From positions 1 to 50,366 of the forward strand of contig JBEBWR010000001.1 in NCBI GenBank assembly GCA_040392045.1: a stretch of 50,366 bases of DNA, given 5' to 3'. The translations under genes and the position numbers were made by a program. Of the stretch, positions 3,943 to 46,561 are shown one piece after another. The notes beneath the pieces are model-generated. The model searched no databases. It saw only the letters and a program-made list of their open reading frames with translations, and was not told where the DNA came from. The number at the start of each line of letters is the position of its first letter. The stretch's first letter is position 1. This DNA is from Chthoniobacter flavus (lineage in GTDB: Bacteria > Verrucomicrobiota > Verrucomicrobiia > Chthoniobacterales > Chthoniobacteraceae).

Positions 3943-4728
3943 TTATTTTTTCGTGCCCCAGAAAGGACGGGTTCTCGGACTGCTTGCCGCTTGTGATGCC
4001 GAAGGATTGGTGGGACCGACAAGCTCTGCTTCAGCCCGCGCCCGGCTGATGACTTCGCCGTGGCCATCAAGAAAAATGACATTGATGTGGTCATCGTGAA
4101 TAAAGGGCGTTCTCCATCCCGAGTCGCTGTCGTCGCCCTTCGCCGCCGCCAGCCGGTCGGGAGCCTGAAAGGCGCTGTAGCGGTAGCCTTTGGCTCCCAG
4201 CGCCTCGTCGTTGAGCGCGGTGCCGTCCATGAAGAAGGCCTGCTGGGAGGGCTGCTCCATGCCTGAGGTCCGGACGGGAACGCCGCGGTTGAATACCTGC
4301 GTGGTCCAGTTGTCGTCGCCGTGGTCGCCTCCCGTCGCATATTGATTGATCGAGTAAGTGCGGTGCCACTCCGCTTTGTTGGCGGCGAAGCGGCTCTTCT
4401 GGATGGCGGGGCAGGTCAGCACGCTATCCACCTTCTGATTGGGCGTGGAGAGTCCCAAGTACGGCAGGATGCTCTGCGGCGGGTCCGTGGTGTAGGTCCA
4501 GCGCGCGCGATCAGGCAGCCTCCCGCTGTTGTCCGCTGCGAACATGAAGCCTGCGTTGGCGATCTGCCGGAGGTTGTTCTGGCACTTCGCCGCATCCGAA
4601 CGTCCCCGGAGCCTGCCTGCTGCGGGAAAGAGCAGCGCGGCAAGCGCGGCGATCAGCCCGATGGCGATCAGGACCTCAGGCAGGGTGAAGCCGCGCGATC
4701 GCTCTGCATGGAAGCTCCGGGGGGGCAT
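3943..4728 (-). CDS. prepilin-type N-terminal cleavage/methylation domain protein, H-X9-DG (DUF1559-like) pseudopilin-like family
   Basis: The N-terminus is MPPRSFHAERSRG|FTLPEVLIAIGLIAALAALLFP (G-F-x-x-x-E plus a hydrophobic helix). The C-terminus has HDDHINVIFLDGH, which is H-X9-DG. Confidence 0.85.
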   Translation of the reverse strand: MPPRSFHAERSRGFTLPEVLIAIGLIAALAALLFPAAGRLRGRSDAAKCQNNLRQIANAGFMFAADNSGRLPDRARWTYTTDPPQSILPYLGLSTPNQKVDSVLTCPAIQKSRFAANKAEWHRTYSINQYATGGDHGDDNWTTQVFNRGVPVRTSGMEQPSQQAFFMDGTALNDEALGAKGYRYSAFQAPDRLAAAKGDDSDSGWRTPFIHDDHINVIFLDGHGEVISRARAEAELVGPTNPSASQAASSPRTRPFWGTKK

Positions 4729-4732
4729 GGCG

Positions 4733-5635
4733 CTAGGATTTCCGGCCGAGCCGGTTCTTGAACAGCGGGATCATCAGTAATCCGCCGATTCCCAGAAGGG
4801 CAACGCTCGGCTCGGGGATAGCGATCACACCCGCGGCAAGGTTATCGATCTGGGCGTCGCTCCGGAAGTTCGTGTAGCGCCAGTACTGGAAATGGTCACG
4901 AACGTTCCGCTCGTCGGTCAGCCAGCTCATCTCAAACGAGGTTACTGTCCCTCCATTGAACGTCACGAGGGTGAAGTCCGTCTGTCCGTCGGTAAGATTC
5001 CGAACGTAAAGCGAAGCAAGGGACTTGGAAATGTCTGTTTCGTTGATGGTAATCACCAACGAGACTTCCCACCATTTGCTGTGCGTGGCAGACATATCGG
5101 AGCTGATCCATGTACCTGCCACTCCTTCGGTTGGATCATAAAAGGCAAATGCGGCTCCGGCTACATCCATCACGCCGAATCCTGCCATCTTGGAGGTCGT
5201 GCCTCCGCCCGCGTTGGTATTGTCAATGAGGATGCGCGCACCGCTCGTACTGCTATTGGTGCGGTAAATCTGCGCGGAGAAATAGAGCACGTTGTCCGAC
5301 GCGGTGAAGGGATTCACCTGCTGGGAACTAAAGCCGGATTCCCGACCGCTAATGACCTGAAGAGCGATGTCACTGGCATTTCCTTGAGATACAAGCGGCG
5401 CCCGCCCGGCGACATTGGCGCTTCCTGTCCACGCAGCCCAATGTTCCGTGCCAACCGTCGGCGATGCCCCGATGGCGAGATTTTCAAAATCGATCACCGA
5501 GCGCTGTTCGTAGCTCTCCGCAATGGTCGAGGCGTGGGATATCGATACCGCAGCGGTCGCGAAAAGCGCGGAGAGAACCAACTGCTTGAGGGTGGGGGTA
5601 TTTGCTTTTCTCATAAGATGGATTCTTCTGATCAT
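4733..5635 (-). CDS. PEP-CTERM-anchored secreted protein (lectin/LamG-like domain inferred)
   Basis: The C-terminus is IAIPEPSVALLGIGGLLMIPLFKNRLGRKS (PEP motif, TM helix, basic tail). Signal peptide is ...KQLVLSALFATAAVSISHA. The ATG at 5635 overlaps the LacI stop as ATGA; an alternative start is ATG 5614 (MRKANTP). Confidence 0.8.
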   Translation of the reverse strand: MIRRIHLMRKANTPTLKQLVLSALFATAAVSISHASTIAESYEQRSVIDFENLAIGASPTVGTEHWAAWTGSANVAGRAPLVSQGNASDIALQVISGRESGFSSQQVNPFTASDNVLYFSAQIYRTNSSTSGARILIDNTNAGGGTTSKMAGFGVMDVAGAAFAFYDPTEGVAGTWISSDMSATHSKWWEVSLVITINETDISKSLASLYVRNLTDGQTDFTLVTFNGGTVTSFEMSWLTDERNVRDHFQYWRYTNFRSDAQIDNLAAGVIAIPEPSVALLGIGGLLMIPLFKNRLGRKS

Positions 5636-6756
5636 GGTGTGAGTGCGTTCGCGCCCGTCTTTGCCTTCCGGAGATAGCTGCCGCACGACTTGCGAACGAT
5701 CAGTTCGCCGGGGAGGACGTTGAGGATGTCGGGAGTGGGCGTGCCGCTGCGGATCGCCTCCAGAAGCACGCCCAGTCCGTGATCCACGATGGCTTTCACG
5801 GGGTGGGCTACAGTGGTCAGCGGCAGCGAACCGTAGCGGCTGACCGGGTCGTTCTCAAATCCCGTAATGGCCAGCTCCTCCGGCACGCGGACATCCGCGT
5901 CGGTGCAGGCGGCCAAAGCTCCCATGGCCCAGCTGTCATTCGAGCAGAGGACCACTTCGGGGAGAACGGGGCGCTGGAGAATGGCGCGCATCCCATGATA
6001 CCCCGGGGCGTAAGTGGTGCGCTCCGCAGTCTGCTCGGCGTCGGCCTTCGGGGGGATGATTTCGTGGTGGACGATCTCCATGTCGCCATGAATCTTCTCT
6101 TCACCGGAAAACTCCGAGATGGCGCGCTGGAACCCGGCGCGGGCGTTGGCGCTATGCCATGAGAGCTGGTTTTTGCGTACGGTGGAATCCCGGCTCAGCA
6201 TCAGGGTCAGCTTGCGGTAGCCCGCGTTGAGGAGGTGGGTGGTCAGAAGGTGAAAGCCCTTTTCCTTATCCGAGAGGTAGCGCGTGATGCCCGGAAGCCC
6301 GCAGCCGAGGCCGACGACGGGGATCTTCGCATCCAGCAGCATCCGGAGATGGCTGATGGTAAAGGCGGGAGGCGGATGCACCAGCGCGACGCCCTCGACC
6401 TGCATCTGGATCATGCGCGAGCAGACGGCCCGACCGTGATCGGCGAACCAGAGGGCGTTATCCACCACCGGCTGGTAGCCTTCCTTGAGGATGCGGCAGA
6501 CGGCCTGCTCCACTTTCACGTGGGGAAGCTGTTCATAGCCGCCGAAATTGATCACTCCGATCATCCCGGAGCGCCCCTTGGACATGATCTGGGCGAAACG
6601 GTTCGGGACGTAGCCGAGCTCTTCCGCCGCGCCCAGAATGCGCTCCCGCAGCTCGGGCGAAATACGGGAAGAGGGCGAGTTGCTCAACACCGAGGCCACT
6701 GCCGAACGGGAGATGCCGAGGTGTCGGGCGATTTCAGTCTGGGTAATGCGAGCCAT
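5632..6756 (-). CDS. LacI-family transcriptional regulator
   Basis: N-terminal HTH MARITQTEIARHLGISRSAVASVLSN, followed by a periplasmic-binding-protein-like sugar-binding domain. 374 aa. Confidence 0.9.
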   Translation of the reverse strand: MARITQTEIARHLGISRSAVASVLSNSPSSRISPELRERILGAAEELGYVPNRFAQIMSKGRSGMIGVINFGGYEQLPHVKVEQAVCRILKEGYQPVVDNALWFADHGRAVCSRMIQMQVEGVALVHPPPAFTISHLRMLLDAKIPVVGLGCGLPGITRYLSDKEKGFHLLTTHLLNAGYRKLTLMLSRDSTVRKNQLSWHSANARAGFQRAISEFSGEEKIHGDMEIVHHEIIPPKADAEQTAERTTYAPGYHGMRAILQRPVLPEVVLCSNDSWAMGALAACTDADVRVPEELAITGFENDPVSRYGSLPLTTVAHPVKAIVDHGLGVLLEAIRSGTPTPDILNVLPGELIVRKSCGSYLRKAKTGANALTP

Positions 6757-6781
6757 GGGGGAGAAAACCGGGGAGGAGAAG

Positions 6782-6817
6782 TGCTAACACGGGTCATCAT
6801 TGCTAACGCGTGTCATC
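6782..6817. promoter_or_regulatory. tandem 17-nt direct repeat in the divergent LacI / DUF4139 intergenic region (candidate operator)
   Basis: TGCTAACACGGGTCATC (6782-6798) and TGCTAACGCGTGTCATC (6801-6817) match at 15 of 17 positions with a 19-nt register. The second copy contains the perfect palindrome ACGCGT. Confidence 0.3.
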
Positions 6818-6915
6818 TTGTCAACGGGAAAAACTCGTCCGAAGATTCGACCTTTGCGGCGCATTGCGGTACGCTTCTAAGAAACGAAGGTTCCCCCGCG
6901 TTACTCCTTTATACG

Positions 6916-8403: not shown

Positions 8404-8406
8404 CCG

Positions 8407-11133: not shown

Positions 11134-11258
11134 AAGCAAAAATCGGTTGGCCGGGAAACTATGCCTCCTCCCTGCCCTTTTGGGGAATCCCAAAATTCGC
11201 TCCTCGCTTTCAGCATTGCCGTTCCCTTCTGCGCACGGCAATATGTCCGGAAGTACCT

Positions 11259-13169: not shown

Positions 13170-14753
13170 ATGAAAACATCGCTACTACGTCTTCTGGCAT
13201 TTGCTCCCGTTGCCGCCTTGTGCCTGCCGCTGCACGCGGCGGACTACAATTTCGTCAAAGGAAACGGCAGCAAGTTTCTGTGGGATCAGAATGGCCTATG
13301 GGTGGACAGCAGCGGCACCCCCTACGCGGACGGCATCCATCCCGGCGCTGGCAGTAGCGTGATGGGTAACTATAACGGAGACGGCATCGGCGTCCCTAGT
13401 CTCTATCTGAATGGAGACCGAACGATCCGTACGCTCATCGGCGACAAGATTTCCGCTACCAACCAGACCAGCACCCGAATTTACAGCGGCCACTCCACAG
13501 CGGTAAATAGCGGCGCGGCCAACACTCTGACTCTCACAGAGTCCCTTGATATCCGGGCAGGGATCTACAACTTCTGGAGCGGTATCGGTACCAGCGGCAC
13601 TCCGGTGGTGTCTGCCCTGAAGATCAATACCCCGGTCTTCCGTCTGGGCACTGCGGAGTATACGAATACCACGGATAACATCATGGTTGCCCGTGCGCAG
13701 TTTGGCTCTTCGTCGGCAAACTCCAGCTACGTCAGCTTTACCTCGCAGGAAACGTACTTCTCCGGAGTCGCCTCGCGGATTGAAGTAGGCGCTGGAACTA
13801 CCGCCGCCAATACTTCCATTAGCCTCGGGCATGTCACCTTTGATATAAACCCCGCGAGCGTAAGTACCAGCGGGATCGAGACGAGTACCGGTACGCCCAC
13901 GATCATCGTCGCCAGCCTTCACCGTACGACAGAGGGTGGCGTCGTGCGTATCATTGGAAATGGCACGCTGGTGATTGACCCCGATTCCTCCACATCGGTG
14001 GTAACCGGTGTGCGCGACTATTCCGGCAGAATCGGCGATGGCATGCGCGTAGAGAAGAAAGGCGACTCCCTTCAGGTTCTCTCGGCGGCGAATGATTACA
14101 CAGGCGGTACGGCTATTAATGGCGGCATACTCGCAGTGCAGAACACCACCGGCTCCGGCCTTGGCACCGGTGCGGTTACCATCGCCGATGGCGGCATCCT
14201 TGCTGGCGGCGGCCGGGTGGCGCTGGGCACCGGGAACACCATTGTCGTGGAAAGCGGCGGCGCGATTGCCCCCGGCGAGGCAAACCGGCTTGACGACGAC
14301 GCTCCGCTCGCATACGAGAACCTGACCATCGTTAATACCGGGCTTCAGTTTGAGAACGGTGCGGCGCTCCACCTCCGGGTGGGTCTGGATGGCTCGGCAG
14401 ACCGGATTGACCTGACTAGCTATACATCCGGGCAACTCCTCTTCGGCATTGAGGGGCTTGCAGTCGACATTACTGGAGACCTCGCCGAAGGGCAGACTTA
14501 TACACTGTTTACCTTTACCAACAGCAGCGGCTCGGAGGTCGCCAGCGGTCTGACGGAAGGGCTTTTCGCCAATACCGGCTTTGACGGGTTTAGCGCTACG
14601 TTCCATTACGATGACGCCCTCTACGGCGGGACGGGCGTCATCAGCATGACAGTAGTCGCTATCCCCGAGCCGGGGACAGCGCTCCTGCTGCTCCCCATCC
14701 TGGGTGGATGGGTCTGCTGCCGGTTCCGCTCGAAGCGCCCTCGCGTTCTCTAA
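13170..14753 (+). CDS. autotransporter-associated beta-strand repeat (PATR) protein with PEP-CTERM anchor
   Basis: The ATG at 13170 gives the signal peptide MKTSLLRLLAFAPVAALCLPLHA. The repeat region is LSAANDYTGGTAINGGILAVQNTTGSGLGTGAVTIADGGILAGGG. The C-terminus is VAIPEPGTALLLLPILGGWVCCRFRSKRPR. Confidence 0.85.
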   Translation: MKTSLLRLLAFAPVAALCLPLHAADYNFVKGNGSKFLWDQNGLWVDSSGTPYADGIHPGAGSSVMGNYNGDGIGVPSLYLNGDRTIRTLIGDKISATNQTSTRIYSGHSTAVNSGAANTLTLTESLDIRAGIYNFWSGIGTSGTPVVSALKINTPVFRLGTAEYTNTTDNIMVARAQFGSSSANSSYVSFTSQETYFSGVASRIEVGAGTTAANTSISLGHVTFDINPASVSTSGIETSTGTPTIIVASLHRTTEGGVVRIIGNGTLVIDPDSSTSVVTGVRDYSGRIGDGMRVEKKGDSLQVLSAANDYTGGTAINGGILAVQNTTGSGLGTGAVTIADGGILAGGGRVALGTGNTIVVESGGAIAPGEANRLDDDAPLAYENLTIVNTGLQFENGAALHLRVGLDGSADRIDLTSYTSGQLLFGIEGLAVDITGDLAEGQTYTLFTFTNSSGSEVASGLTEGLFANTGFDGFSATFHYDDALYGGTGVISMTVVAIPEPGTALLLLPILGGWVCCRFRSKRPRVL

Positions 14754-14833
14754 GGCCAATTGAGGTTACAAAGGCTTCCTCTTTGCCTTTTCCCTTCCCC
14801 TCTGCGATCCTCTTCAATCCAAGAAATATCTTA

Positions 14834-26965: not shown

Positions 26966-26997
26966 GTCGTCCTCCCGGGTTTTCAGATTCTTTCTTT

Positions 26998-30856: not shown

Positions 30857-30928
30857 AAGTTTACCGGAACGGGAGACGCATCGAACGCCCCGGAAAGTGG
30901 ATGAAGGTGAACAAAAGAATAAGCCAGA

Positions 30929-31663: not shown

Positions 31664-31916
31664 CGCCGCCTGAACTCTGGGGAGCTACTTTTGGACGGCT
31701 GGCAGTAGACGCTCCGTCTATGGAAAGTCCGATCGGAAGGTGCACCTTGAGATTATACGCCCGATCCGCGACGCTCGTCAATCGGTGGCTCTCGTTGCGA
31801 AGCTGTATCGGAAAAAAGTGCAGATCGAAAGAGTTGATCCGTCCGCGGCTTGCCGGTCATTCTCTGGACGAACGATCCCTCACCTCCCAGGAAATGCTCA
31901 GACGGGCAGTTGCGAA

Positions 31917-35181: not shown

Positions 35182-35892
35182 CTACCCTTCTACGGCGGCT
35201 CCGGAGGAGAGAAACTCCCGGATTCTCCCGATATGGGTCTGCATCAGTTCATCCGCGCCCTTGGCATCGCGCTTTTTCAGCGCTTCGACAATATCCGCAT
35301 GCCGTACTCCGGCGAGAATCCCCGGAGTCTGGCTGGGAGTGACCTGCAAGGAGCAGACAAAACAGAGATGCATGAGATGTTGACGGTCGAGAACTTCCGT
35401 CAAAAAGCGGTTTCCGCTGGCCCGGGCGATCCCCATATGAAAGTCCATGTCCTTGCGGATAGCCTTCAATCGCTGCGCGACATCGCTATTGATCTCTCTC
35501 ATGCTCCAGAAATCCGTTTCCTGGGCCATCTTCTCAAGGCGCCTGATCTCGGCGGCGGAGATCCGTGAGGCCGCTTGAAAGGCCGCCAGCCCCTCCAGTC
35601 GGACCCGAATCTCCAGAAGATTCATATACTCTTCCACAGAAACGCTTCTCACATAAGTGCCGGACCGGTTGCGACGCTCCAGCACGCCCCCCTCCGCAAG
35701 GCGGTTGAGCGCCATCTTCACGGGGCTGAGCCCATAGCCGAGTCGTTCCGCCAGCAGATACTCGCTAAGCTTTGCCCCCGGCAGGTATTCGCCATTGCGA
35801 ATCAGCGTCGCGATCTCCACGGCGCAGGCATCGCTCAGGGTTAGCGACGACTGCGTACCGTTCGGGGCTTTCGGTTTGATGGTGCGCTTCAT
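35182..35892 (-). CDS. GntR-family transcriptional regulator (FadR/FCD subfamily)
   Basis: wHTH ...LPGAKLSEYLLAERLGYGLSPVKMALNRLAEGGVLERRNRSGTYV followed by an all-helical C-terminal domain. 236 aa. Confidence 0.85.
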   Translation of the reverse strand: MKRTIKPKAPNGTQSSLTLSDACAVEIATLIRNGEYLPGAKLSEYLLAERLGYGLSPVKMALNRLAEGGVLERRNRSGTYVRSVSVEEYMNLLEIRVRLEGLAAFQAASRISAAEIRRLEKMAQETDFWSMREINSDVAQRLKAIRKDMDFHMGIARASGNRFLTEVLDRQHLMHLCFVCSLQVTPSQTPGILAGVRHADIVEALKKRDAKGADELMQTHIGRIREFLSSGAAVEG

Positions 35893-37797: not shown

Positions 37798-38571
37798 ATG
37801 AACTGCCTCCCCTCCCTCCACAGCGCATTCACTTTCCCGGGTCTTCGTTCCCGCTCCATTGCATGGGTGTCGGGTCTTTGCTGTGCCGCTCTTTCTTCAA
37901 CGGCGATGGGCGCGCTCATCAGTACCGATGTTGACTTTACGACGGTTTATACCGCTACCGTCGTCCCCAATTCCGCGACTCCGAAGTGGACGCTGAACCT
38001 TAGCCAAGGCAGCGCGTCGGTGGCCGGCGGTGTGCTGGTCATGAATACCCCTCAGTCGAGCGGACGCTATTATTCACTTTCCGAAGAGACCTGGGATGGA
38101 GGAACAGCTACCGGCTCCACGATTGAATTTTCCTTAAAAGTGATTTCGACAGCGGAGGGAGCCACAGCGGGGGCGACGCAGTTCATGTTTTCCACGGGAA
38201 GCAAACTCTATACCTTCAACTTTTCGGAGACCGGGGTGGCCACACAGACGGGAGGCTACAGTGTATCCTATGACACAACTTCGGATTTCACCGTCTACCG
38301 CATCACCTTATCCGAAGGTGGGATTGCCTCCCTTTATGCCAATCACTCTTCCACGCCTTTGATCGCTGATTATTCCGGTTCCGATAACAGCAACAACAAG
38401 ATCTCTTTTGGGGATAGCAGCAACAGCATCGGAGGCATTTCCCATTGGGAATATGTCGCGTTTACCAATCAGGGCAGCTTCGCCCCGATCCCGGAGCCAA
38501 CCTCGGTGAGTCTGCTCGGGGTGACACTCCTTCTGGGCGCGCGGCTTTGTCGGAGGCAGTCGAAGCGCTGA
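37798..38571 (+). CDS. PEP-CTERM-anchored secreted protein with a jelly-roll/lectin-like domain
   Basis: The C-terminus is APIPEPTSVSLLGVTLLLGARLCRRQSKR. It is collinear with the 21847 protein (TWDGG...TIEFSLKVIS...YRITLSEGGIASLY...FGDSSN...HWEYVAF). Confidence 0.8.
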   Translation: MNCLPSLHSAFTFPGLRSRSIAWVSGLCCAALSSTAMGALISTDVDFTTVYTATVVPNSATPKWTLNLSQGSASVAGGVLVMNTPQSSGRYYSLSEETWDGGTATGSTIEFSLKVISTAEGATAGATQFMFSTGSKLYTFNFSETGVATQTGGYSVSYDTTSDFTVYRITLSEGGIASLYANHSSTPLIADYSGSDNSNNKISFGDSSNSIGGISHWEYVAFTNQGSFAPIPEPTSVSLLGVTLLLGARLCRRQSKR

Positions 38572-38657: not shown

Positions 38658-39383
38658 ATGCGCGCTCTCGTCCCCCAGTGCAGAAAAACCGCGCGCGGAG
38701 CGGCGGCGGCAAGCTTTGTAGAGCTTCTCGTAGCGGTGGCGGTTCTCTCCGTCCTCTTCGCGCTGCTCTATCCGACGTTTCAACGCGCGGCGGCGGCTTC
38801 GAAATCGGTCGCCTGCATGAATCAGCTCCGCCAGATCGGAGCCGCAGCCCATCGCTACATGGCGGAGAACAATCAGATGATCCCGCACCGGGCCAATAGC
38901 GAAGCCAAAGGGTGGATGCATCTCATAGCTCCCTACCTCCATCTCGATCCCGAGACCGACACCCAAGCCGATATTTTTCGCTGTCCCGCAGATCCCTCCA
39001 AAGCCCCGCGTCAACCCAGAACCTATAAATGGAACCTCTCACGCAACAAGCCCGGCGGTTCAGTCTCGGTCGGCAGCTACACGCTTTTGCAACTGCCGAC
39101 GCCCGCCCGGCTTTCCCTGATTTCCAATCCGGCCACTCACGCGATGATCTTCGACATCGCCTACACCGGGTCTTCCCGGTTTGAACTCTGGAAGAATAAT
39201 AACAATGCCTGGGGAGATACTTATGATCTATCAAGCTTTCCCCCCGGAAAGGAGGGCTCTCCCTTTGTCCGTCCGCATCATCACGACCGGGCGGTGAACA
39301 TTCTCTACTACGACGGCCATGTCGGGGTCGGAACCTATCCGCTTCCTCCTGCCTCCTATTACTGGGAGGCGGCTTCCCAATAG
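38658..39383 (+). CDS. prepilin-like H-X9-DG family protein with an atypical N-terminal motif
   Basis: The N-terminus MRALVPQCRKTARGAAAAS|FVELLVAVAVLSVLFALL has Glu at +3 instead of +5. The C-terminus HDRAVNILYYDGH is H-X9-DG. Confidence 0.75.
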   Translation: MRALVPQCRKTARGAAAASFVELLVAVAVLSVLFALLYPTFQRAAAASKSVACMNQLRQIGAAAHRYMAENNQMIPHRANSEAKGWMHLIAPYLHLDPETDTQADIFRCPADPSKAPRQPRTYKWNLSRNKPGGSVSVGSYTLLQLPTPARLSLISNPATHAMIFDIAYTGSSRFELWKNNNNAWGDTYDLSSFPPGKEGSPFVRPHHHDRAVNILYYDGHVGVGTYPLPPASYYWEAASQ

Positions 39384-39411
39384 GGGCCGCCACTGTTTTC
39401 TGCTGATTCTT

Positions 39412-40671
39412 ATGTCTACTGATTCACCTCTCAACGTAGCCGTCATCGGTACCGGCATGCGTGCCACTTCCTATTTCCGCAACGTCCCGGAGTCGCTGCG
39501 CGGGCGCATCCGGCTTTCCGCCGTCTGCGATCCTTCGGAAGCGAACCGTCGTTTCTTTGTGGAGCGATTCGGCGATAGCGCTACGCTTCACTATGCGGAT
39601 GCCCGCGAGTTGTTCGCGGGGGAACCCGCCGGTGCGTTGATCATCGCCAGCCCCAACGATTGCCATCGGGATCACCTCATCGCGGGGCTGGAGTGGAACG
39701 TCCCAATCCTGCTGGAGAAGCCGGTCTGCATCACGCTGGAGGAGTGTCAGTCCATCTGGCGGGCATGGGAGACGTCCCGCAAGCCGGTCGTCGCGGTCGG
39801 GTTTGTGCTGCGTTATACCCCCTTTTACCGGAAGGTTCAGGAAATCGTGCGCTCGGGAGCTTTGGGGCAGATCCTTCAGGTGGACGGAGATGAAATCATC
39901 AGCACCGCATTGACTTCGCTCTTCTTCCGTGACGGGTGGCGGCTGAAGGATGCCTGTACCGGCGGGTTTCTGGTGGAAAAATGCTGTCACGATTTTGACG
40001 TGCTCGGCTGTCTGGCGGACTCGCCGGTCAAGCGGATCAGCTCGTTTGCCGCTCGTACGCACTTTGTCCCCCGGCCCCGCGCGGAACAGAATCCGCGCTT
40101 CGATCCCGAGATCACCCGCAGCCTCGCGCTCGACTATGGAGATGTCGCCATCAAGCGGCATTTCGAATCGGTTACCGATGCTTCCGTCTATAGCGGAAAA
40201 AGCGATGTGCCGGATCATCAGTCGGCCATCGTCGAGTATGAGAACGGCGTGCTGAGCACTCTCACCGTCACGTTCGGCCAGCCGCGACAGACCCGTCTCA
40301 TTCGGATCATGGGGAGCAACGGCCTGCTGACCGGAGACTTTCAGGCCTCCACCATTACTTACGAAGTGGGCCGCGCTTCCTCCTCCTTATGGGATCGGAA
40401 AGAGATCACGGTTCCCCACGACGAAAGCGGACACCAGGGGGGCGACACGCATATCAACCATGCCTTCTGGAACGCCGCTTTCGGTAAGGAGGAAATCATT
40501 CACGCCGGACTCCGCGAAGGGCTGGAGGCGGTGATCACCGCGATCTGCGTGGAGAAAGGCAAGCGTACCGGCAACCCCGTCGATGTCGCGCAAGCGCGCC
40601 GGTTCGTCTTTGACGCTCCGGCTCCCCTCCAGCCGGTATCCGCAAGCCCGGCTTGCGGAGTGACGGGATAG
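39412..40671 (+). CDS. Gfo/Idh/MocA-family NAD(P)-dependent oxidoreductase
   Basis: The ATG at 39412 places the Rossmann motif NVAVIGTGMRATSY at the N-terminus. The conserved EKP motif is present (PILLEKPVC). The track ORF is over-extended to 39319. Confidence 0.85.
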   Translation: MSTDSPLNVAVIGTGMRATSYFRNVPESLRGRIRLSAVCDPSEANRRFFVERFGDSATLHYADARELFAGEPAGALIIASPNDCHRDHLIAGLEWNVPILLEKPVCITLEECQSIWRAWETSRKPVVAVGFVLRYTPFYRKVQEIVRSGALGQILQVDGDEIISTALTSLFFRDGWRLKDACTGGFLVEKCCHDFDVLGCLADSPVKRISSFAARTHFVPRPRAEQNPRFDPEITRSLALDYGDVAIKRHFESVTDASVYSGKSDVPDHQSAIVEYENGVLSTLTVTFGQPRQTRLIRIMGSNGLLTGDFQASTITYEVGRASSSLWDRKEITVPHDESGHQGGDTHINHAFWNAAFGKEEIIHAGLREGLEAVITAICVEKGKRTGNPVDVAQARRFVFDAPAPLQPVSASPACGVTG

Positions 40672-40683
40672 GATCATAGCGTC

Positions 40684-41940
40684 ATGGTTCTCACGATGTT
40701 CCGGCAAGGGCTGCTTTGCCTCCTGCTCCTGTTGCTTCTGCCTGCCTGCCGAAAGGCCAGCCCGCCCCATCTTGTCGTGCTCAGTCCCGGCGGAGCGGCG
40801 GGCAAGGCGGTCGAGCAGATTGTCGAGGAGTTCCGGAGGGAAAACCCCGGCGTGGAGGTTCAGATTGTCAGTACTCCAGGGCGCGACTATTACGTCAAGT
40901 CGCTCACCATGCTGGCAGGCAAAGCCCATGTGGATATCCTGTGGCTCGGGCAGGGCTTCGGTATGTTCGCAGGGCGTCAGGCGCTGCTGGACCTCTCTCC
41001 CCTGATTCAGGATGATCCTGCCTTTTCCTTCCGTCACTACCATCCCGCAGTTGTGGACTGGTATCGATACCGGAATGCCCTCTACAGCCTGCCATACGGG
41101 ATTGACGTTCAGGTCATCGCCTATAACAAAGACCTCTTCGATGCCGCTGGCGTTGCCTACCCCACCCCCGATTGGACGCTTGATGAAATGTTGGAGAAAG
41201 CAAAAGCGCTCACCCGGTATCAGCGGGGAAGAGGTCGTACCGAAGTGGCGGGCCTCGGATTTCTGGATCTCGACTACCGGTACGACGGCCTCTCCCTCCT
41301 GAGCGAAGATCATACCCGATTTGGACTGAACAATGAGGCAGGCAAGGCGTGGATGAATCGGAATCTCGCGCTGATCCATCGGGAGCGGATTCTCCAGCGG
41401 GGATCGGATATGGCCTCCATGGATCGGCTCTCGGCCTTTCTCAACCAGCAGGTCGCCATGATCGAGTTTACCCCGTGGGACGTTCAGGAAACCTATCATC
41501 GCGCCCCCTTCCGGTGGGATATCGTAGCAGTTCCGACCGGGCGGGAAGGGAAACGCAAAGGCTGGGCCTCCAGCGCCGGGTTTGGCATCGCGCGAAACTG
41601 CCGACAGCCCCGGTTGGCGTGGGCTCTGCTCAAAGAGTTGACCGGCCCGGCCTTCCAGCGAGCCATGCTTAAAACCACCATCCCCGCCTCCAGCGCGTTG
41701 CATGGGGAATACCTTGCAGCCAACGCGGCCCCTCCGGAGCACCTCTCCGAATTTCTCAGAATGCTCGACTTCATGGACCCGAATCCCCGCATCACGGCTT
41801 TTACCGAAGTGGAAGCCGAGTGGGTTTACTGGAAAGACCTCGCCCTGCTGCGCAAAGTCTCTGTCGAGGAAGCGCTTTCAGGAGCGGAGTCCGGCATCAA
41901 CCGTATTCTGGAGCTGCATCGAAAGGAGGAGGCGCAGTGA
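40684..41940 (+). CDS. ABC transporter extracellular solute-binding lipoprotein (carbohydrate, CUT1-type)
   Basis: Lipoprotein signal is MVLTMFRQGLLCLLLLLLLPAC. 418 aa. It is followed by two MalF/MalG-type permease genes. Confidence 0.85.
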   Translation: MVLTMFRQGLLCLLLLLLLPACRKASPPHLVVLSPGGAAGKAVEQIVEEFRRENPGVEVQIVSTPGRDYYVKSLTMLAGKAHVDILWLGQGFGMFAGRQALLDLSPLIQDDPAFSFRHYHPAVVDWYRYRNALYSLPYGIDVQVIAYNKDLFDAAGVAYPTPDWTLDEMLEKAKALTRYQRGRGRTEVAGLGFLDLDYRYDGLSLLSEDHTRFGLNNEAGKAWMNRNLALIHRERILQRGSDMASMDRLSAFLNQQVAMIEFTPWDVQETYHRAPFRWDIVAVPTGREGKRKGWASSAGFGIARNCRQPRLAWALLKELTGPAFQRAMLKTTIPASSALHGEYLAANAAPPEHLSEFLRMLDFMDPNPRITAFTEVEAEWVYWKDLALLRKVSVEEALSGAESGINRILELHRKEEAQ

Positions 41941-42836
41941 GAGTCCCGGCATGGATTACCGCCCTCTTTCTCGGGCCCAATGTCCTCGGATTCCTGACCT
42001 TCACGCTGGCGCCTATTGTCGCCTCGCTCGTGTTGGCGTTCTATTCCTGGGATCTCTTCAATGAGCCCCGGTTTGTGGGGCTCGATAATTTTCATAACCT
42101 TGTCGGATTCCAGGCCGGTCCGCAGGGGTGGCAAGCGACCAATCCGCGGTTTTGGCACTACGCGTTCAATACCCTCTTTCTGATGCTCGGGCTGCCCTTC
42201 TCCATTCTGGGCTCCCTGCTGCTCGCCTGCCTGCTGAACCGAAAGCTTTATGGGCGAAACTTCTTCCGGCTCATCTTCTTCCTCCCCTCCATTGTCAGCG
42301 GCGTCGGGGTCTACCTGTTATGGAAGTGGATTTTCCAGCCGGACTTCGGATTGATCAACTCCGCCCTGATGCACTTCGGGGTCGTCGGGCCACGCTGGCT
42401 GGAAGCGACCTCGTGGGCCAAGCCGGCGCTCATGATCATGAGCTTCTGGGGAAGCGTCGGCGGAATGAATGTCGTGCTCTATCTGGCCGCTCTTCAGAAT
42501 ATCAGCCCCGAGCTTTATGAGGCCGCGGAAGTCGATGGAGCAAAGCCGTGGCGGAAGTTCTGGCATATCACGTGGCCGATGGTCTCCCCGACGACGTTTT
42601 TCATCCTCATCATGGGCATCATCCACGGCTTTCAAGGCGGATTCGACGCTGCCTATGTCATGACTCGGGGCGGCCCGGCGGGGGCTACCACGACCCTGAG
42701 CTACTTTATTTATGAGACCGGCTTTCAGTTTTTCTACATGGGCCGCGCCTCCGCCGCGAGCTGGCTCCTCTTTCTGATGGTCATGGTTTTTACCTGGCTG
42801 AACTGGAGGTTTGCCAGCCGACAGGTCCATTACTAA
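41937..42836 (+). CDS. carbohydrate ABC transporter permease (MalF/UgpA-like)
   Basis: The GTG at 41937 overlaps the upstream stop as GTGA, with AAGGAGGAGG 5-14 nt upstream. EAA loop is YEAAEVDGAKPWRKFWHITWPMVSP. The track ORF is over-extended to 41820. Confidence 0.8.
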   Translation: MRVPAWITALFLGPNVLGFLTFTLAPIVASLVLAFYSWDLFNEPRFVGLDNFHNLVGFQAGPQGWQATNPRFWHYAFNTLFLMLGLPFSILGSLLLACLLNRKLYGRNFFRLIFFLPSIVSGVGVYLLWKWIFQPDFGLINSALMHFGVVGPRWLEATSWAKPALMIMSFWGSVGGMNVVLYLAALQNISPELYEAAEVDGAKPWRKFWHITWPMVSPTTFFILIMGIIHGFQGGFDAAYVMTRGGPAGATTTLSYFIYETGFQFFYMGRASAASWLLFLMVMVFTWLNWRFASRQVHY

Positions 42837-42849
42837 TTACCTCCCTGAC

Positions 42850-43764
42850 ATGCCACTGGAACGCCGCCTCCGCGACATCAAAGATCCCCTGACCCGTAGC
42901 CGCGAGGCCGGAAAGCGCACGCTGCTCTGGCTCTTCCTGCTGCTCGTCGGGATCACCATGACTTACCCCCTGCTCTGGATGCTGGGTACCTCGGTGAAGA
43001 CCACCGATCCCGCCCTCCTGCTCGCGGAGGGGAGCCGCTCAAGCATCTTCCCGGTCGGAGGGAGCATCCTGCAAGACCTCTTTCCCGCCGTATGGCATTG
43101 GGAAAACTATCGGCTCGTTTTTCAGGAGATTCCCTACGCCCGGTATTTCTTCAATAGCGTATTCATCGCGTTGTCTGTAACGGTCGGCCAGATCGTCGCC
43201 TGCTCCATGGCGGCCTATGCTTTCAGCCGGTTTGAGTTCCGCTGGAGAGACAAGCTCTTCTTCTGCTACCTCGCTACCCTCATGGTGCCATCCACCGTGA
43301 CGCTGATTCCCACCTTCATCCTGTTAAGCCGGTTCGGCCTGATCGACACCTATTTCGCCCTCATTGCCCCCGCGATCTTCAGCGCCTACGGCACGTTCAT
43401 GCTGCGGCAGTTCTTCATGGGCATCCCCCGCGAGCTCGAAGAGGCCGCCGTCATTGACGGCTGCGGGCCGATCGCCATCTTTCGCCACGTCATCCTCCCG
43501 CTCTCCGGTCCGGCGTTGGCAACGCTCGGGATCTTCTGCTTCCTCGCGAACTGGCAGAATCTCCTGGGTCCGCTGGTGAAGATCAATAGCGACAACCTTA
43601 AACCCCTGCCGCTGGGGTTGCTCAATTTCGTGGACCTCAATACCGCCAACTGGCCGCTGCTCATGGCCGCGAGCCTTATCTCCATCGCTCCTGTGATCGT
43701 CATCTTCCTCCTCGGCCAGCGATTCTTCGTCTCCGGCGTCCGGCTCGGCGGCGTGAAAGGATAA
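42850..43764 (+). CDS. carbohydrate ABC transporter permease (MalG/UgpE-like)
   Basis: The start is the ATG at 42850 (MPLERRL...). EAA loop is LEEAAVIDGCGPIAIFRHVILPLSGPAL. It has six hydrophobic segments. Confidence 0.85.
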   Translation: MPLERRLRDIKDPLTRSREAGKRTLLWLFLLLVGITMTYPLLWMLGTSVKTTDPALLLAEGSRSSIFPVGGSILQDLFPAVWHWENYRLVFQEIPYARYFFNSVFIALSVTVGQIVACSMAAYAFSRFEFRWRDKLFFCYLATLMVPSTVTLIPTFILLSRFGLIDTYFALIAPAIFSAYGTFMLRQFFMGIPRELEEAAVIDGCGPIAIFRHVILPLSGPALATLGIFCFLANWQNLLGPLVKINSDNLKPLPLGLLNFVDLNTANWPLLMAASLISIAPVIVIFLLGQRFFVSGVRLGGVKG

Positions 43765-43772: not shown

Positions 43773-45023
43773 CTACAGATGCACCTTGGCGAGAAAGATA
43801 CTGTTGTCGCTGCCTGATAGTTCGCAAAGCCCGCAGCGCCCTGGCAAGGCTGCCAGCGCGCGAAGATCGGCGGTTGGAAAGCGCTCTTCCAGCGCGGACC
43901 AGACCTCCGCGTTCCATTCGCCCGCATTTTCCATCCATTCAGAGACGCAGATGAGCGCCGCGTCATCAGAGTACGGTGTCACGCCGAAGTTCCCGAGCTG
44001 CGCTCCCCGCTCGGGGATCACCTCCTGCTCGCTGGCCTTGATCAGAACGCCCCGCTGCTGGTCGACCTCCGCCATCCAGAGCGGCGCCCGGTAGCGTACC
44101 ACGTGGGCATTCTGCCCGCTCCGCCGCGTATAGACCAGAAAGAGACGATCCGCGAGCCGCATCCAGTGCGCCTGCGTGTCGTACGACTCCAGCATCGTAC
44201 CGTCATCAAAACGCCAGAGCGTCGGCGCGTCGAAATGGAGTCCGTCCGAAGACGTGGCATAGTAAGCGCCGCCCCCATTGCGCAGGGTCATCCAGTAGCG
44301 GTCGGCTCCCCGGATCAGCGACGGTTCTCCCAATCCACGATGACTGGCCATGCTCAGCGTATTGCCCAGTTCCTTCAGCCGCAACTGCTCTCCGTCAAAT
44401 CCGCAGGCCATCACGAGCACTTCCGTCCGCAACTGGTCCGGCGTCCCATGCCGGTCAGACCGGAAATAGATCGGCACGAGCAGATCTCCATCCTCCTTTT
44501 CCTCCCACTGGATGCTTCCCGTCCCCGAGGAGAAGAAGCGCTTCGGGTCCGGCATCTCCAGCGCCTGCGCATCGCTCCAGTGATCGCGGCCCGGCTTCAG
44601 GACCGACCAGACCGTCTCCCGTCGGCGGGGTACCGGTGCGAGCGCCTCCCCGCGATAGCGGCAGGTATGCCCCAGTCCGAGGATGCGGCCCGTGGCGGAG
44701 TGCCACTGGGGCGTAAAGTCCGAGATGACCACGCGCAACTCCCCTTCGCTCCACGGAGCCAACCCGCGCTGAGGTTCGGGAGCCGTCCAGCTCTCGCCAC
44801 CGTCATTGCTGATCATCATGTGCAGTCCGCCGAAGACGTCCCATGTCGACTCGTCGCGCCCCATCTTATTTCCCTGAAGCGTGATCAGCTGACGTGCGCA
44901 TTCGGGGATCGAGTGATCGATCACTGCTCTCGCATGCACCCAACATGATCTCCGGTCATACCCCTTTTGAACCACCCTGCGCTCCACGCTCGGAGCGCAC
45001 TCAGTAACCTCGATTGGCGTCAT
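43773..45023 (-). CDS. BNR/Asp-box beta-propeller protein (sialidase-fold glycosidase-like), no signal peptide
   Basis: A canonical Asp-box SNDGGESW is present. It is collinear with the 26998 protein (for example YTRRSGQNAHVVRYRAPLWMAEVD versus YTRKSGDNAHVYCHRAPLFMAEVD). The ATG at 45023 overlaps the upstream gene by 23 nt. The track ORF extends to 45134. Confidence 0.6.
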   Translation of the reverse strand: MTPIEVTECAPSVERRVVQKGYDRRSCWVHARAVIDHSIPECARQLITLQGNKMGRDESTWDVFGGLHMMISNDGGESWTAPEPQRGLAPWSEGELRVVISDFTPQWHSATGRILGLGHTCRYRGEALAPVPRRRETVWSVLKPGRDHWSDAQALEMPDPKRFFSSGTGSIQWEEKEDGDLLVPIYFRSDRHGTPDQLRTEVLVMACGFDGEQLRLKELGNTLSMASHRGLGEPSLIRGADRYWMTLRNGGGAYYATSSDGLHFDAPTLWRFDDGTMLESYDTQAHWMRLADRLFLVYTRRSGQNAHVVRYRAPLWMAEVDQQRGVLIKASEQEVIPERGAQLGNFGVTPYSDDAALICVSEWMENAGEWNAEVWSALEERFPTADLRALAALPGRCGLCELSGSDNSIFLAKVHL

Positions 45024-45699
45024 AGATATACTCGGGATTGAAATACTCCTCGGCCTCCTCCCGCGAGAGCGCCTCGGCATGACCATCCATGAAAAGAATA
45101 TTTGCCTTCCCCCGATGGCGCAGCTGGACGCCATCGGATACCTTCGCGATATTCACGCGAAAGGTTTCCGAGCGGATGCCCGGGCCGATCTCCGCCTTCG
45201 TCGCGCTGTCCACCAGCATCGGCCGACGCGCCAGATCCGGAATCGCGGCCAGACGAAGTGTATAGGTCTGTGCATTCCCGTTGGGCGGGGTCGGCTGGCC
45301 ATCCGGGGCGGCCATATTGAAGCCGTACGTATTCCAGGCCCACGAGGCGCTGGTGATCTCGTATTGGCTCCGCCCCTCGGGGCAACGCAGGCTGGAGGGA
45401 TCGGTGAGATAGCCCCGGACCTGTAGCGTCAGGCCCCAAATCGCCGTACCCGTATTTCCTCCCCGGGCGAAACTGCGAAACTCCCCGTTGTTATCCGCGA
45501 TCAGCCGATGGAGCAATACCCCCGTTGACCGTTGATTGGCGGCACATCGGAAAGCGCGGCTGGAAGCGCGCGCGGAAGAGATCGCAGGGAGGATCAGCGC
45601 CGTCAGGACCGCGATCACCCCGATGCCCAGCAGCAGCTCGGTCAGAGTGAAGCCATTGGGCCTTTTCATCGTTTCGGAATGAGCGCCGGACATACGCAT
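45001..45699 (-). CDS. prepilin-type N-terminal cleavage/methylation domain protein, H-X9-DG family
   Basis: The N-terminus is ...MKRPNG|FTLTELLLGIGVIAVLTALILP. The C-terminus HRGKANILFMDGH is H-X9-DG. The start is either ATG 45699 or ATG 45669 (MKRPNG). Confidence 0.85.
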   Translation of the reverse strand: MRMSGAHSETMKRPNGFTLTELLLGIGVIAVLTALILPAISSARASSRAFRCAANQRSTGVLLHRLIADNNGEFRSFARGGNTGTAIWGLTLQVRGYLTDPSSLRCPEGRSQYEITSASWAWNTYGFNMAAPDGQPTPPNGNAQTYTLRLAAIPDLARRPMLVDSATKAEIGPGIRSETFRVNIAKVSDGVQLRHRGKANILFMDGHAEALSREEAEEYFNPEYIYDANRGY

Positions 45700-45715
45700 G
45701 GGAGGAGGGGAGGAA

Positions 45716-46561
45716 TTATCGTTTTCTGGCGATCCTTATCCCTCCCGCGATCAGCAATCCTCCGGCAGCCAGCGAAATCGCCGTGCCCGGCTCGGGAATG
45801 GAGGTGACGGCGCGGACGTCGTCGAGGTACCAGTTCATGGCAGTGTTCGCCGTCGTCGCGTCGACGGGATGGATATGAATCTGATCGAGCGAGCGCATAT
45901 CGCGATAGAAGAAGAGATCCCCTGTGCTCCAGGTTTTGCTGGGGTTGGCGATATCCACAATGGTCACGCTATAGGTCTGCGCCTGAAGGTTCGCATCGAT
46001 GGTGAATTCGTACCAGCGATCCTCAATCAGACGGTTATTGCTCGGGTTGGTCGCATTGGTGGCGCTACCGGTACCGGGACCGGTAGTCCGTGTGAGAACG
46101 CTGACGGTCCCGGAGGAGTAAACCCGGAGACTGGCAAACGAATTATTCGCTTCCAATGTCGAGTCCTGAAGATTGATGCGGTAATCGCTATTTGAGAAGG
46201 AGTCGATCATCAGCTTGAACGAAATGGAGAACGTATCCGCGCTTTCGGCGCTGCCGACCAGACGGTCGAAATTCCGGCTGAACGCGCCGCGGTCCTCCAT
46301 ATTGGCCTCGCCCTGTAGATGGAGCACCTTGTTGTTCGGAGCCATCCCGCCGGTGGAACTGCCATCCTCCACCGTCGGCGTCAGGTCTCCGGAAGCGGTC
46401 CACGGGTTGTCATTCCCATCGTCGGGCGTCGTCGGCGCGGTCCCGGTGGCATAGGTTTCAAACGTATCATCCAGCAGGAGCGTGGTTGCCTCCGCCCGGG
46501 CAGAGAGCAGGGCGGTGCCGAGGGCTGCGGTGGAGACCAGAAGGAGCAGGGGCTTATTCAT
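45716..46561 (-). CDS. PEP-CTERM-anchored secreted protein (LamG/lectin-like domain inferred)
   Basis: Signal peptide is MNKPLLLLVSTAALGTALLSARA. The C-terminus is TSIPEPGTAISLAAGGLLIAGGIRIARKR. The start overlaps the upstream stop as ATGA. Confidence 0.8.
   Translation of the reverse strand: MNKPLLLLVSTAALGTALLSARAEATTLLLDDTFETYATGTAPTTPDDGNDNPWTASGDLTPTVEDGSSTGGMAPNNKVLHLQGEANMEDRGAFSRNFDRLVGSAESADTFSISFKLMIDSFSNSDYRINLQDSTLEANNSFASLRVYSSGTVSVLTRTTGPGTGSATNATNPSNNRLIEDRWYEFTIDANLQAQTYSVTIVDIANPSKTWSTGDLFFYRDMRSLDQIHIHPVDATTANTAMNWYLDDVRAVTSIPEPGTAISLAAGGLLIAGGIRIARKR

Follow-up and report, generated by a model that had tools for sequence, protein, structure and literature searches.

Why should operons for sugar use each carry a gene for a pilin-like protein? 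The question is raised by a 50.4-kb stretch of Chthoniobacter flavus DNA (contig JBEBWR010000001.1; hereafter the window), with about 60% G+C and about 38 genes, in which such genes belong to the H-X9-DG/DUF1559 type. In soil, in the oceans and in the gut, bacteria of the Planctomycetes-Verrucomicrobia-Chlamydiae (PVC) superphylum play a major part in breaking down complex and sulfated polysaccharides, and to our knowledge most of them are without SusC/D. H-X9-DG/DUF1559 genes occur in dozens to hundreds of copies per genome. DUF1559 is a large family without known function (PMC10632474, PMC2754498), of which Planctopirus has 68 members, two being essential (PMC10632474), and the players of macromolecule uptake in Planctomycetes were still described as unknown in a 2025 review (PMC12673574).

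Five operons with a pilin-like gene next to a secreted partner

As predicted from its genes, the window is an array of five independent sugar-regulated glycan-utilisation operons, each with one divergent H-X9-DG pilin-like protein. In all five a gene for a secreted non-enzymatic protein lies directly 5' of the pilin-like gene on the same strand, as the first-pass annotation of this DNA had claimed, and the gaps between partner and pilin-like gene are 4, 13, 22, 86 and 16 nt in cassettes A to E. That annotation had also called the locus a five-fold repeated cassette. An open reading frame (ORF) check of the window recovered every listed ORF, and the five cassettes stand where they had been placed; however, the pilin-like proteins are 23-30% identical and their partners come from at least four families. 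By sequence the five are not copies of one another, and the window holds a recurring architecture rather than a repeated cassette.

The pairs are listed below, where letters A to E denote the cassettes, _pp a prepilin-like protein and _pep a PEP-CTERM protein. Cut-offs for the hidden Markov models (HMMs) were 16.3 bits for TIGR02532, 19 bits for TIGR04294, 23.3 bits (gathering score) for PF07596 and 16 bits for TIGR02595.

4733..5635, minus strand: A_pep, secreted PEP-CTERM protein with signal peptide; tail IPEPSVALLGIGGLLMIPLFKNRLGRKS
3943..4728, minus strand: A_pp, H-X9-DG prepilin-like protein, 4 nt after A_pep; TIGR02532 24.3 bits and PF07963 24.7 bits, both above cut-off; HDDHINVIFLDGH by inspection
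13170..14753, plus strand: B_patr1, PATR beta-helix protein with PEP-CTERM tail IPEPGTALLLLPILGGWVCCRFRSKRPRVL; Pfam PATR 30.6 bits
16124..17584, plus strand: anchorless PATR paralog of cassette B, directly 5' of B_pp; 40% identity to B_patr1
17598..18446, plus strand: B_pp, H-X9-DG/DUF1559 prepilin-like protein after a 13-nt gap; TIGR04294 29.1, TIGR02532 23.4 and PF07596 38.9 bits, all above cut-off
21847..22632, plus strand: C_pep, predicted ConA-like lectin with PEP-CTERM tail; 40% identity to D_pep, of the same family as the modelled D_pep; PF07589 18.3 bits
22643..23266, plus strand: C_sec, putative anchorless lectin paralog; distant homolog of C_pep and D_pep (E 2e-5, 3e-7)
23289..23993, plus strand: C_pp, prepilin-like protein, H-X9-DG domain without the His (Phe at -10); TIGR04294 21.4 bits, above cut-off; TIGR02532 15.5 bits, just below
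37798..38571, plus strand: D_pep, predicted ConA-like lectin with PEP-CTERM tail; TIGR02595 18.1 bits, above cut-off; AlphaFold2 (AF2) model and Foldseek matches
38658..39383, plus strand: D_pp, H-X9-DG prepilin-like protein with degenerate cleavage site; PF07596 22.2 and TIGR02532 13.8 bits, both just below cut-off; HHHDRAVNILYYDGH
39368..39391, plus strand: terminator-like hairpin at the D_pp stop codon, before the oxidoreductase and ABC importer genes; 9-bp stem with 7 GC pairs, T-run
45716..46561, minus strand: E_pep, secreted PEP-CTERM protein, possibly of ConA-like fold; orthologs with PEP-CTERM tails (42-53% identity) directly 5' of E_pp orthologs
45001..45699, minus strand: E_pp, H-X9-DG prepilin-like protein; TIGR04294 22.9 and TIGR02532 20.6 bits, above cut-off; orthologs with 53-65% identity

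No terminator-like site was found between partner and pilin-like gene in any of the five pairs, and each partner is probably co-transcribed with its pilin-like gene. Promoter and terminator scans of the window gave the number expected from shuffled sequence, save for the one hairpin after D_pp. When gene labels were permuted over 38 window genes, the probability of three or more strict adjacencies of a PEP-CTERM gene followed by a pilin-like gene was 0.0057.

Conservation of the pairs in other genomes

Loci from other genomes and metagenomes that were used for comparison carry L-numbers here. Cassette E is intact in three other assemblies (L003, L005/L006 and L007/L008). The conserved unit consists of a divergent GntR regulator with periplasmic-binding domain, a GH123 gene, a PEP-CTERM protein of 272-284 aa that is 42-53% identical to E_pep, the pilin-like gene and a BNR-like gene, and its flanks are wholly different in each of the three genomes. 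In these orthologous loci the partner and the pilin-like gene are -4 to +21 nt apart. Between the 3' end of the pilin-like gene and the BNR-like gene there is an overlap of 20-23 nt, present in the window (45001-45023), L003 (10668-10690), L005 (10671-10690) and L007 (10683-10702), and its conservation suggests translational coupling of the two genes.

A D-type pair is also found in a metagenome. Locus L137 contains a GntR-like gene, a D_pep ortholog with PEP-CTERM tail (41% identity), a secreted protein of 919 aa (3220-5976) and, after a 3-nt gap, a D_pp ortholog (48% identity). The N-terminus of the 919-aa protein is a D_pep-type lectin domain (E 1e-12), and the layout of L137 repeats the order of cassette C, with an anchored and an anchorless protein followed by the pilin. 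The same 919-aa protein was also considered as a fusion of lectin and D_GH-like barrel; this came from a single comparison (E 0.013) and was not relied on. Another locus, L136, shares synteny with the window on the downstream side. More distant D_pp relatives (33-36% identity) have no lectin neighbour, and in L074 the partner of an E_pep homolog is another pilin paralog, with a GH123-like gene after it. The earlier claim that pilin-like protein and secreted partner form a unit is upheld by the E pair, kept across three genomes with unrelated flanks, and by the D-type pair of the metagenome.

A paralogous cassette in a related metagenome-assembled genome (MAG), L001, comprises a pilin-like gene, GH123, a BNR-like gene and a D-type lectin. 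Two kb upstream of it, at 698-3433, lie PilM and three small genes, possibly PilN/O/P-like, which shows this lineage to possess type IV filament machinery.

Pairing across the PVC superphylum

A degenerate DNA pattern for H-X9-DG-x-E, applied to one genome per species, yielded 120 stretches of 8 kb, almost all from Verrucomicrobiota, Planctomycetota, Lentisphaerota, Kiritimatiellia and Omnitrophota. The same pattern on viral contigs returned seven stretches, none relevant. In the PVC sample, of the 85 H-X9-DG genes with sufficient upstream sequence, 7 have a PEP-CTERM ORF that ends within 300 nt upstream on the same strand, against 0.46 expected from the PEP-CTERM density in the same 120 loci, which is a conservative background (about 15-fold; Poisson P = 6e-7). 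The first-pass annotation had proposed to check for such an excess of PEP-CTERM genes as upstream neighbours, and the excess is there. For three further H-X9-DG genes a PEP-CTERM ORF begins no more than 300 nt downstream. Chthoniobacterales MAGs contain the tightest pairs of the sample (-4, 4 and 10 nt), L074 being one of them, and pairing was seen in 3/7 genes of this order against 3/78 outside it (Fisher P = 0.006).

The contexts are otherwise mixed. Among 88 evaluable genes, 34 are without a same-strand upstream neighbour, 5 follow a prepilin-like gene, 5 a PEP-CTERM gene and 44 some other gene; solitary H-X9-DG genes number 10 of 70. A fixed gene order had been claimed as well, and here the wider sample disagrees: the order pilin, enzyme or enzymes, then PEP-CTERM protein occurs in L001, L128 and the second operon of L040. 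LacI/GntR-type regulators with periplasmic-binding sensor domains are the commonest upstream families, and ConA-like Laminin_G_3, GH123, CBM_4_9, GH2, 3-keto-disaccharide hydrolase and PQQ_2 the commonest downstream ones. Divergent upstream neighbours are mostly unrelated housekeeping genes, so that an own regulator for each H-X9-DG gene is not a family-wide rule. HMMs of the partner families detected no further members in the 120 loci outside close lineages.

The pilin-like proteins

The five prepilin-like proteins of the window, one per operon, are 232-282 aa long. A six-frame motif scan confirmed the five prepilin-like N-termini noticed earlier, four with the canonical G-F-[ST]-L-x-E and one, in D_pp, with the degenerate 'AAAASFVELL'. 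The N-terminal methylation models TIGR02532/PF07963 score above cut-off in A, B and E, with C and D just under it (TIGR02532), and the H-X9-DG model TIGR04294 scores above cut-off in B, E and C. By inspection, His stands at -10 from the Asp-Gly in A, B, D and E and is replaced by Phe in C, which agrees with the four H-X9-DG motifs counted before. For DUF1559/SBP_bac_10 (PF07596), B passes, D and A (13.3 bits) lie below the gathering score and C and E have no match; all these matches span only profile positions 4-62 of 268.

Glu+5 is invariant in the window set. D_pp is without Gly-1 and Phe+1 and has Ala-Ala at -1/+1 (38658-38770), and its orthologs (48-56% identity) have clearer cleavage sites. 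Across the PVC sample, Phe+1 is present in 100 of 103 H-X9-DG proteins, while position -1 is occupied by Gly in 52 and by Ala in 37. Ala at -1 is also found in the three E_pp orthologs of L003, L005 and L007, which retain Phe+1 and Glu+5. An invariant Glu+5 with a near-invariant Phe+1 fits real filament subunits, and the Ala -1 and degenerate sites raise the question whether some members are cut by a variant prepilin peptidase or stay uncleaved.

The five proteins are mutually homologous at 23-30% identity (all-vs-all BLAST), against 53-65% between E_pp and its orthologs. This pattern is expected of specificity modules, and by these identities the five pilin-like proteins are old paralogs. Equivalog models of GspG/H/I/J/K reach at best 13-23 bits against cut-offs of 44-89, with the N-terminal helix alone aligned; the Verru_Chthon models (TIGR02596-02600) behave likewise, TIGR02596 giving 13.5-16.5 bits against a cut-off of 70, again over the N-terminal helix only.

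An AF2 model of E_pp (predicted local distance difference test, pLDDT, 72) has the shape of a pilin-like lollipop, with a 50-residue alpha-1 helix and a small beta sheet. The sole Foldseek match of this model in the PDB is a type IVa pilin, a weak one, and nothing significant was found beyond it. A profile search of the PDB aligned pilins and GspG over residues 1-67 only, the N-terminal helix. A word-index search recovered four homologs of D_pep, eleven of E_pp and three of E_pep, and because so few were found the alignments for structure prediction are shallow; an exact look-up of D_pep returned no record.

In a 13-sequence alignment of E_pp, the invariant or nearly invariant positions are Glu+5, Phe+1, a Cys pair, Trp88, Pro107, Asp164, His195, Asn200 and Asp-Gly-His 205-207. 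The Cys pair (residues 52 and 106) could be a disulfide, and the His/Asp cluster (D164, H195, D205-G206-H207) could be a metal site.

The secreted partners

Exactly five tails with a PEP motif, a transmembrane helix and a basic end were found in the window by the six-frame scan, in A_pep, B_patr1, C_pep, D_pep and E_pep, which is the number given by the first-pass annotation. HMM support for them is thin: only D_pep passes TIGR02595, C_pep, D_pep and E_pep lie under the Pfam PEP-CTERM gathering score, and A_pep is without match. By eye the tails are unmistakable.

The partners had been described as PEP-CTERM-anchored in four of the five cassettes. The gene directly 5' of the pilin-like gene does encode an anchored protein in A, D and E; in B and C, however, it encodes an anchorless paralog of an anchored protein that lies one (C) or two (B) genes further upstream. 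The anchorless copies stop exactly where the PEP motif of the paralog starts ('...MTLTSAP*' against 'VVAIPEP' in B, 'GIFPPLSP*' against 'APVPEP' in C). Pairs of anchored and anchorless proteins are present at 13170-17584 (B) and 21847-23266 (C) of the window and at 2417-5976 of L137, and the copy adjoining the pilin is always the anchorless one.

By BLAST, C_pep and D_pep share 40% identity and C_sec is a distant relative, the B pair are PATR paralogs, and A_pep and E_pep match nothing beyond the tail. On these comparisons the partners are of at least four unrelated families. The AF2 model of D_pep, built from a six-sequence alignment, has pLDDT 75 overall and about 85-92 in the core, and shows a beta-sandwich followed by a C-terminal helix. 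In Foldseek it comes closest to the lectin domain by which Vibrio cholerae sialidase binds sialic acid (2w68; E 1e-7, TM 0.70), and next to carbohydrate-recognition domains of Emp46/47, legume lectins and neurotoxin receptor-binding domains; a weak Pfam match to Sial-lect-inser agrees with a lectin fold. A ConA-like lectin fold is thus supported, on the predicted model, for the C/D partner family (D_pep, and C_pep and C_sec by homology). In the model, D_pep superposes on the V. cholerae domain, a CBM40/ConA-like lectin domain of a sialidase; it differs from such domains in that it stands alone, anchored to the membrane and not part of an enzyme, and sequence identity is about 15%.

The ectodomain family of E_pep has 34 representatives among 1.84 billion sequences, and 10 of 31 members carry a Pfam PEP-CTERM match at E <= 0.01. 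Weak matches of single members to Laminin_G_3, Sialidase-like_CBM and SO2946-like_C are a hint that E_pep may have a fold of the ConA-like class. A PDB sequence search with E_pep profiles gave nothing meaningful. Profile-profile comparison of the E_pep family (shallow or with 31 sequences) with the C/D lectins aligned the last strand and the PEP-CTERM tail only, and a kinship of the ectodomains was not accepted on this basis. A_pep was likewise not accepted as a member of the C/D or the E family, there being no convincing match and a weak hhalign alignment to the C-terminus of the C/D lectin only; HMM and Pfam scans assigned it to no family. The two B proteins match PATR (PF12951) at 30.6 and 34.4 bits against a gathering score of 27, with no match to the autotransporter C-terminal beta-barrel. 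The earlier term lectin-like therefore holds for the C/D family by its fold model and has a hint in its favour for E, while B is a PATR beta-helix and A has no family match.

The PEP motif, hydrophobic helix and basic tail of the five window proteins and their orthologs are those of PEP-CTERM/exosortase sorting. Classically, however, such sorting belongs to exopolysaccharide and floc loci, whereas here it is met in catabolic operons beside pilin-like genes, with no exosortase among the scanned window ORFs.

Glycan context of the cassettes

A glycan context for the pairs had been proposed, and it is supported by sugar-type regulators, exported glycosidases, an ABC importer and the ConA-like fold predicted for the C/D partner. 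Pfam identified three LacI regulators and one regulator with a GntR helix-turn-helix (HTH) and a periplasmic-binding domain. The enzymes comprise two DUF4838 proteins, a GH123/DUF4091 protein, a GH42-like protein, BNR-like proteins, a GDSL esterase and, weakly, a GH18-like TIM barrel. The remaining features of the cassettes are as follows.

5632..6756, minus strand: A_lacI, LacI-family regulator, first gene of the operon; Pfam LacI and Peripla_BP_3; 4-nt overlap with A_pep
2701-3927, minus strand: PGA_cap (CapA-like) protein, cassette A downstream; Pfam PGA_cap 2.4e-54
201-2753, minus strand: PcRGLX-like lipoprotein of 850 aa, cassette A downstream; Pfam PcRGLX_1st 4.4e-6
14834..16033, plus strand: LacI-type regulator of cassette B; Peripla_BP_3 3e-20; 28% identity to A_lacI
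18463..20577, plus strand: DUF4838 glycosidase-like lipoprotein of cassette B; Pfam DUF4838 4.6e-19; lipobox 'LFLVSC'
20719..21753, plus strand: LacI regulator of cassette C; Pfam LacI, Peripla_BP_1 and Peripla_BP_3
23984..35177, plus strand: enzyme run of cassette C as a whole; Pfam
23984-26965, plus strand: DUF4838 with GH2_N, cassette C; Pfam
26767-28260, plus strand: C_unk1, BNR-like paralog, cassette C; 37% identity to E_bnr, E 2e-78
28194-30856, plus strand: two ORFs without family name, cassette C
30929-31663, plus strand: GDSL esterase, cassette C; Pfam
31740-35177, plus strand: GH42-like protein, cassette C; Pfam
35182..35892, minus strand: divergent regulator of cassette D, assigned to GntR by the first-pass annotation only; ORF present; 31% identity to the divergent gene at the equivalent place in L137
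36016..37704, plus strand: D_GH, TIM-barrel glycosidase-like lipoprotein; weak GH18 match 5.5e-5, below threshold; lipobox 'AIPAC'
39319..43764, plus strand: GFO/IDH/MocA oxidoreductase, ABC solute-binding lipoprotein and two permeases, cassette D downstream; Pfam
49121..50227, plus strand: divergent regulator of cassette E with GntR-HTH and periplasmic-binding domain; Pfam GntR and Peripla_BP_3; kept in L003, L005 and L007
46558..49056, minus strand: GH123-like (DUF4091) secreted glycosidase, cassette E; Pfam GH123_cat 6.8e-24
43773..45023, minus strand: E_bnr, BNR/sialidase-fold protein without signal peptide; Pfam BNR_2 9e-8

C_unk1 (26767-28260, plus) and E_bnr (43773-45023, minus) represent a sialidase-fold family without signal peptide, members of which are present in cassettes C and E and also in L001, L003, L005 and L007. 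Three ORFs of 406, 481 and 465 aa (28194-30856, plus; 9844-11241, minus) have no meaningful Pfam or NCBIfam match, and the only match of the one at 9844-11241 is a lactonase far under cut-off. The two nameless ORFs inside the enzyme run of cassette C may be unclassified glycoside hydrolases; the NCBIfam scan gave no names for the nameless cassette enzymes. Two tandem DUF4139 genes (6235-9840, plus), which sit between cassette A and a ROK gene, are 83% identical over 477 aa. By this identity they are a recent duplication, and they are without obvious tie to the cassettes.

Possible functions of the pilin-like proteins and their partners

We tentatively favour a reading in which each pilin-like protein is a substrate-specific, sugar-induced subunit on a shared type II/IV filament machine, with a cognate surface partner that captures glycan for the glycosidases of the operon; we regard this as quite possible, though short of probable. 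In the presence of the sugar inducer the pilin-like subunit would be made and its class III signal peptide processed. It would then be inserted into a shared type II-secretion/type IV-filament machine encoded elsewhere, where it would act as the substrate-specific module of the filament and pair physically with the cognate surface lectin. Together, subunit and lectin would capture a particular glycan at the cell surface and pass the glycan or its fragments to the glycosidases of the operon. Next would come import through the inner membrane, in cassette D for example by its ABC system, after which processing in the cytoplasm would fall to the BNR-like enzymes.

We infer that the direction of transport is capture and import rather than export. 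Glycan capture is favoured because the scale and the regulation of the family mirror SusC/D-type specificity modules, and because there is precedent at the level of the phylum in dextran-binding fibres and in the pilus genes of Akkermansia MUL loci. Solitary H-X9-DG genes, too, are more readily explained by a subunit that binds or captures than by a cargo adaptor. Uptake in the manner of SusC/D is meant as an analogy. A wider proposal, that H-X9-DG proteins in general, the largest paralog family without known function in Planctomycetes, Verrucomicrobia and Lentisphaerae, are interchangeable sugar-induced specificity subunits of a type IV-like filament and would, with exosortase-sorted lectins, form a pilus-based system of glycan capture and import as the PVC counterpart of SusC/D, seems to us doubtful.

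Several points weigh against capture by filament subunits. Here the link of the pilin-like protein to partner and glycan is one of gene neighbourhood, and the sequence fits import and export alike. Pairing with PEP-CTERM proteins concerns a minority of about 4-8% of H-X9-DG genes PVC-wide and gene order varies, so that no family-wide rule can be drawn. Prepilin processing is not assured, because several members have Ala at the cleavage position and the site of D_pp is degenerate. The globular domain of the pilin-like protein is without a solved relative, and the confidence of its model is moderate. A lectin fold is supported for the C/D partner, and glycan binding by the partners in A, B and E is hypothetical. 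Finally, no assembly machinery is present among the scanned ORFs: exosortase, prepilin peptidase, secretin and assembly ATPase were all absent from the Pfam and HMM scans of the window, as the first-pass annotation had noted, and PilM was not found among the same ORFs.

The most serious alternative, still unlikely in our judgement, is a cargo-specific adaptor for secretion or display, in which an operon-specific pseudopilin on a shared type II pseudopilus would export the PEP-CTERM lectin and glycosidases of its own operon to the surface. Signal peptides or lipoboxes are present in every partner and in most of the enzymes, and PEP-CTERM proteins need a route across the outer membrane, which such an adaptor would supply. 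Both proteins of a pair would start as periplasmic proteins anchored in the inner membrane, one by an N-terminal and the other by a C-terminal helix, and the tight spacing of -4 to +21 nt suggests stoichiometric complexes. The sugar-regulated pullulanase secreton of Klebsiella, which exports a surface lipoprotein, offers an analogy. The weak N-terminal HMM matches are to GspG/H/I pseudopilins; yet all Gsp equivalog models stay far under their cut-offs. Known type II systems move many unrelated cargos with a single pseudopilin set, so that dozens of cargo-specific subunits would be unprecedented, and the 10 of 70 solitary genes, like some loci with just a regulator and a pilin-like gene, have no cargo gene nearby.

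Two further alternatives are each improbable. In the first, the pairs would be an adhesion or matrix module, surface or biofilm parts for attachment to glycan-rich particles or for floc formation, regulated jointly with the degradative enzymes but without a role in substrate transport. This would suit the classical tie of PEP-CTERM/exosortase to exopolysaccharide and floc formation, the adhesin-like PATR beta-helices of cassette B and the discussion of Akkermansia MUL2 as an attachment system (PMC13174399). The genes are, however, part of catabolic operons that LacI/GntR sugar sensors control and that also encode importers and cytoplasmic glycosidases, and one-to-one pairing of old specific paralogs argues for substrate specificity.

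In the second, the H-X9-DG protein would not belong to a filament at all; held in the inner membrane by its N-terminal helix, it would bind glycans or act as a sensor in the periplasm, and so feed transporters or signal to regulators. DUF1559 bears the Pfam label SBP_bac_10 and is cited in PMC2754498 as a solute-binding family; H-X9-DG genes often adjoin LacI-type regulators; and with Ala at -1 in 36% of the family and a degenerate site in D_pp, cleavage may suffer. On the other hand, the residues that matter for pilin processing and assembly, and not for a plain anchor, are those retained (Glu+5 throughout the window set, Phe+1 in 100/103), the E_pp model is a pilin-type lollipop and not a periplasmic-binding-protein fold, and cassette D already has a canonical solute-binding protein. 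A chance neighbourhood of two expanded families, for which speak the many PEP-CTERM and H-X9-DG genes of PVC genomes, the 68 DUF1559 paralogs of Planctopirus (PMC10632474) and the heterogeneous contexts PVC-wide, is very improbable and largely excluded by the window permutation (P = 0.0057), by the PVC sample (P = 6e-7 against a conservative background) and by orthologous pairs that stay together while their flanks change completely.

Comparison with known systems and significance

The operons resemble the SusC/SusD polysaccharide utilisation loci (PULs) of Bacteroidota in having many paralogous substrate-specific loci, each with its own sugar regulator, a surface glycan binder, surface or periplasmic glycosidases and a marker pair of adjacent genes. 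The pair of the window is a different one, a pilin-like protein with a PEP-CTERM or secreted protein of beta-sandwich or beta-helix type, and no Pfam match to TonB_dep_Rec, Plug or SusD was obtained in any scanned window ORF. With the type II pseudopilins GspG-K, as in the maltose-regulated pullulanase secreton of Klebsiella, the pilin-like proteins share a class III signal peptide, Phe+1, Glu+5 and sugar regulation beside a surface-anchored glycan-degrading enzyme. The window differs in having one orphan subunit per operon, larger at about 230-280 aa and with a C-terminal H-X9-DG domain, and no GspD/E/F nearby.

Similar in setting is the pilus-based glycan capture or uptake proposed within the same superphylum, where complex glycans would be bound by a type IV-like filament and only afterwards degraded in the periplasm (PMC5394234, PMC12078418, PMC13174399, PMC12418764). 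Planctomycetes bind dextran by pili-like fibres (PMC5394234), and mucin uptake by Akkermansia needs MUL genes that include pilus genes (PMC12418764, PMC13174399). Akkermansia MUL2 has an archaeal-type pilin (Amuc_1102) with PilM, whereas the window has H-X9-DG proteins with PEP-CTERM lectins. As annotated, the loci differ from Sus-type PULs, Gsp pseudopilin sets, Verru_Chthon cassettes and MUL2-type loci, in each case by lacking a defining feature that was tested.

The component families, H-X9-DG/DUF1559, PEP-CTERM and ConA-like lectins, are all known, and a full-text literature search found no paper on the pairing of H-X9-DG pilin-like and PEP-CTERM proteins. New, by that search, would be a PUL-like locus type marked by a pair of pilin-like protein and PEP-CTERM lectin. 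Were the link one of mere co-regulation, the gain would be a modest one in annotation. Even so, the operons join two orphan systems to sugar-regulated glycosidases and give a handle on uptake, on the function of H-X9-DG proteins and on the role of PEP-CTERM; the pair could mark glycan-utilisation operons in Chthoniobacterales, and the window itself offers a five-by-five matrix of cognate and non-cognate combinations in which specificity can be compared. If the pilin-like proteins are indeed specificity subunits of a filament, they would give a molecular identity to the polysaccharide-binding fibres and the 'selfish' uptake of PVC bacteria.

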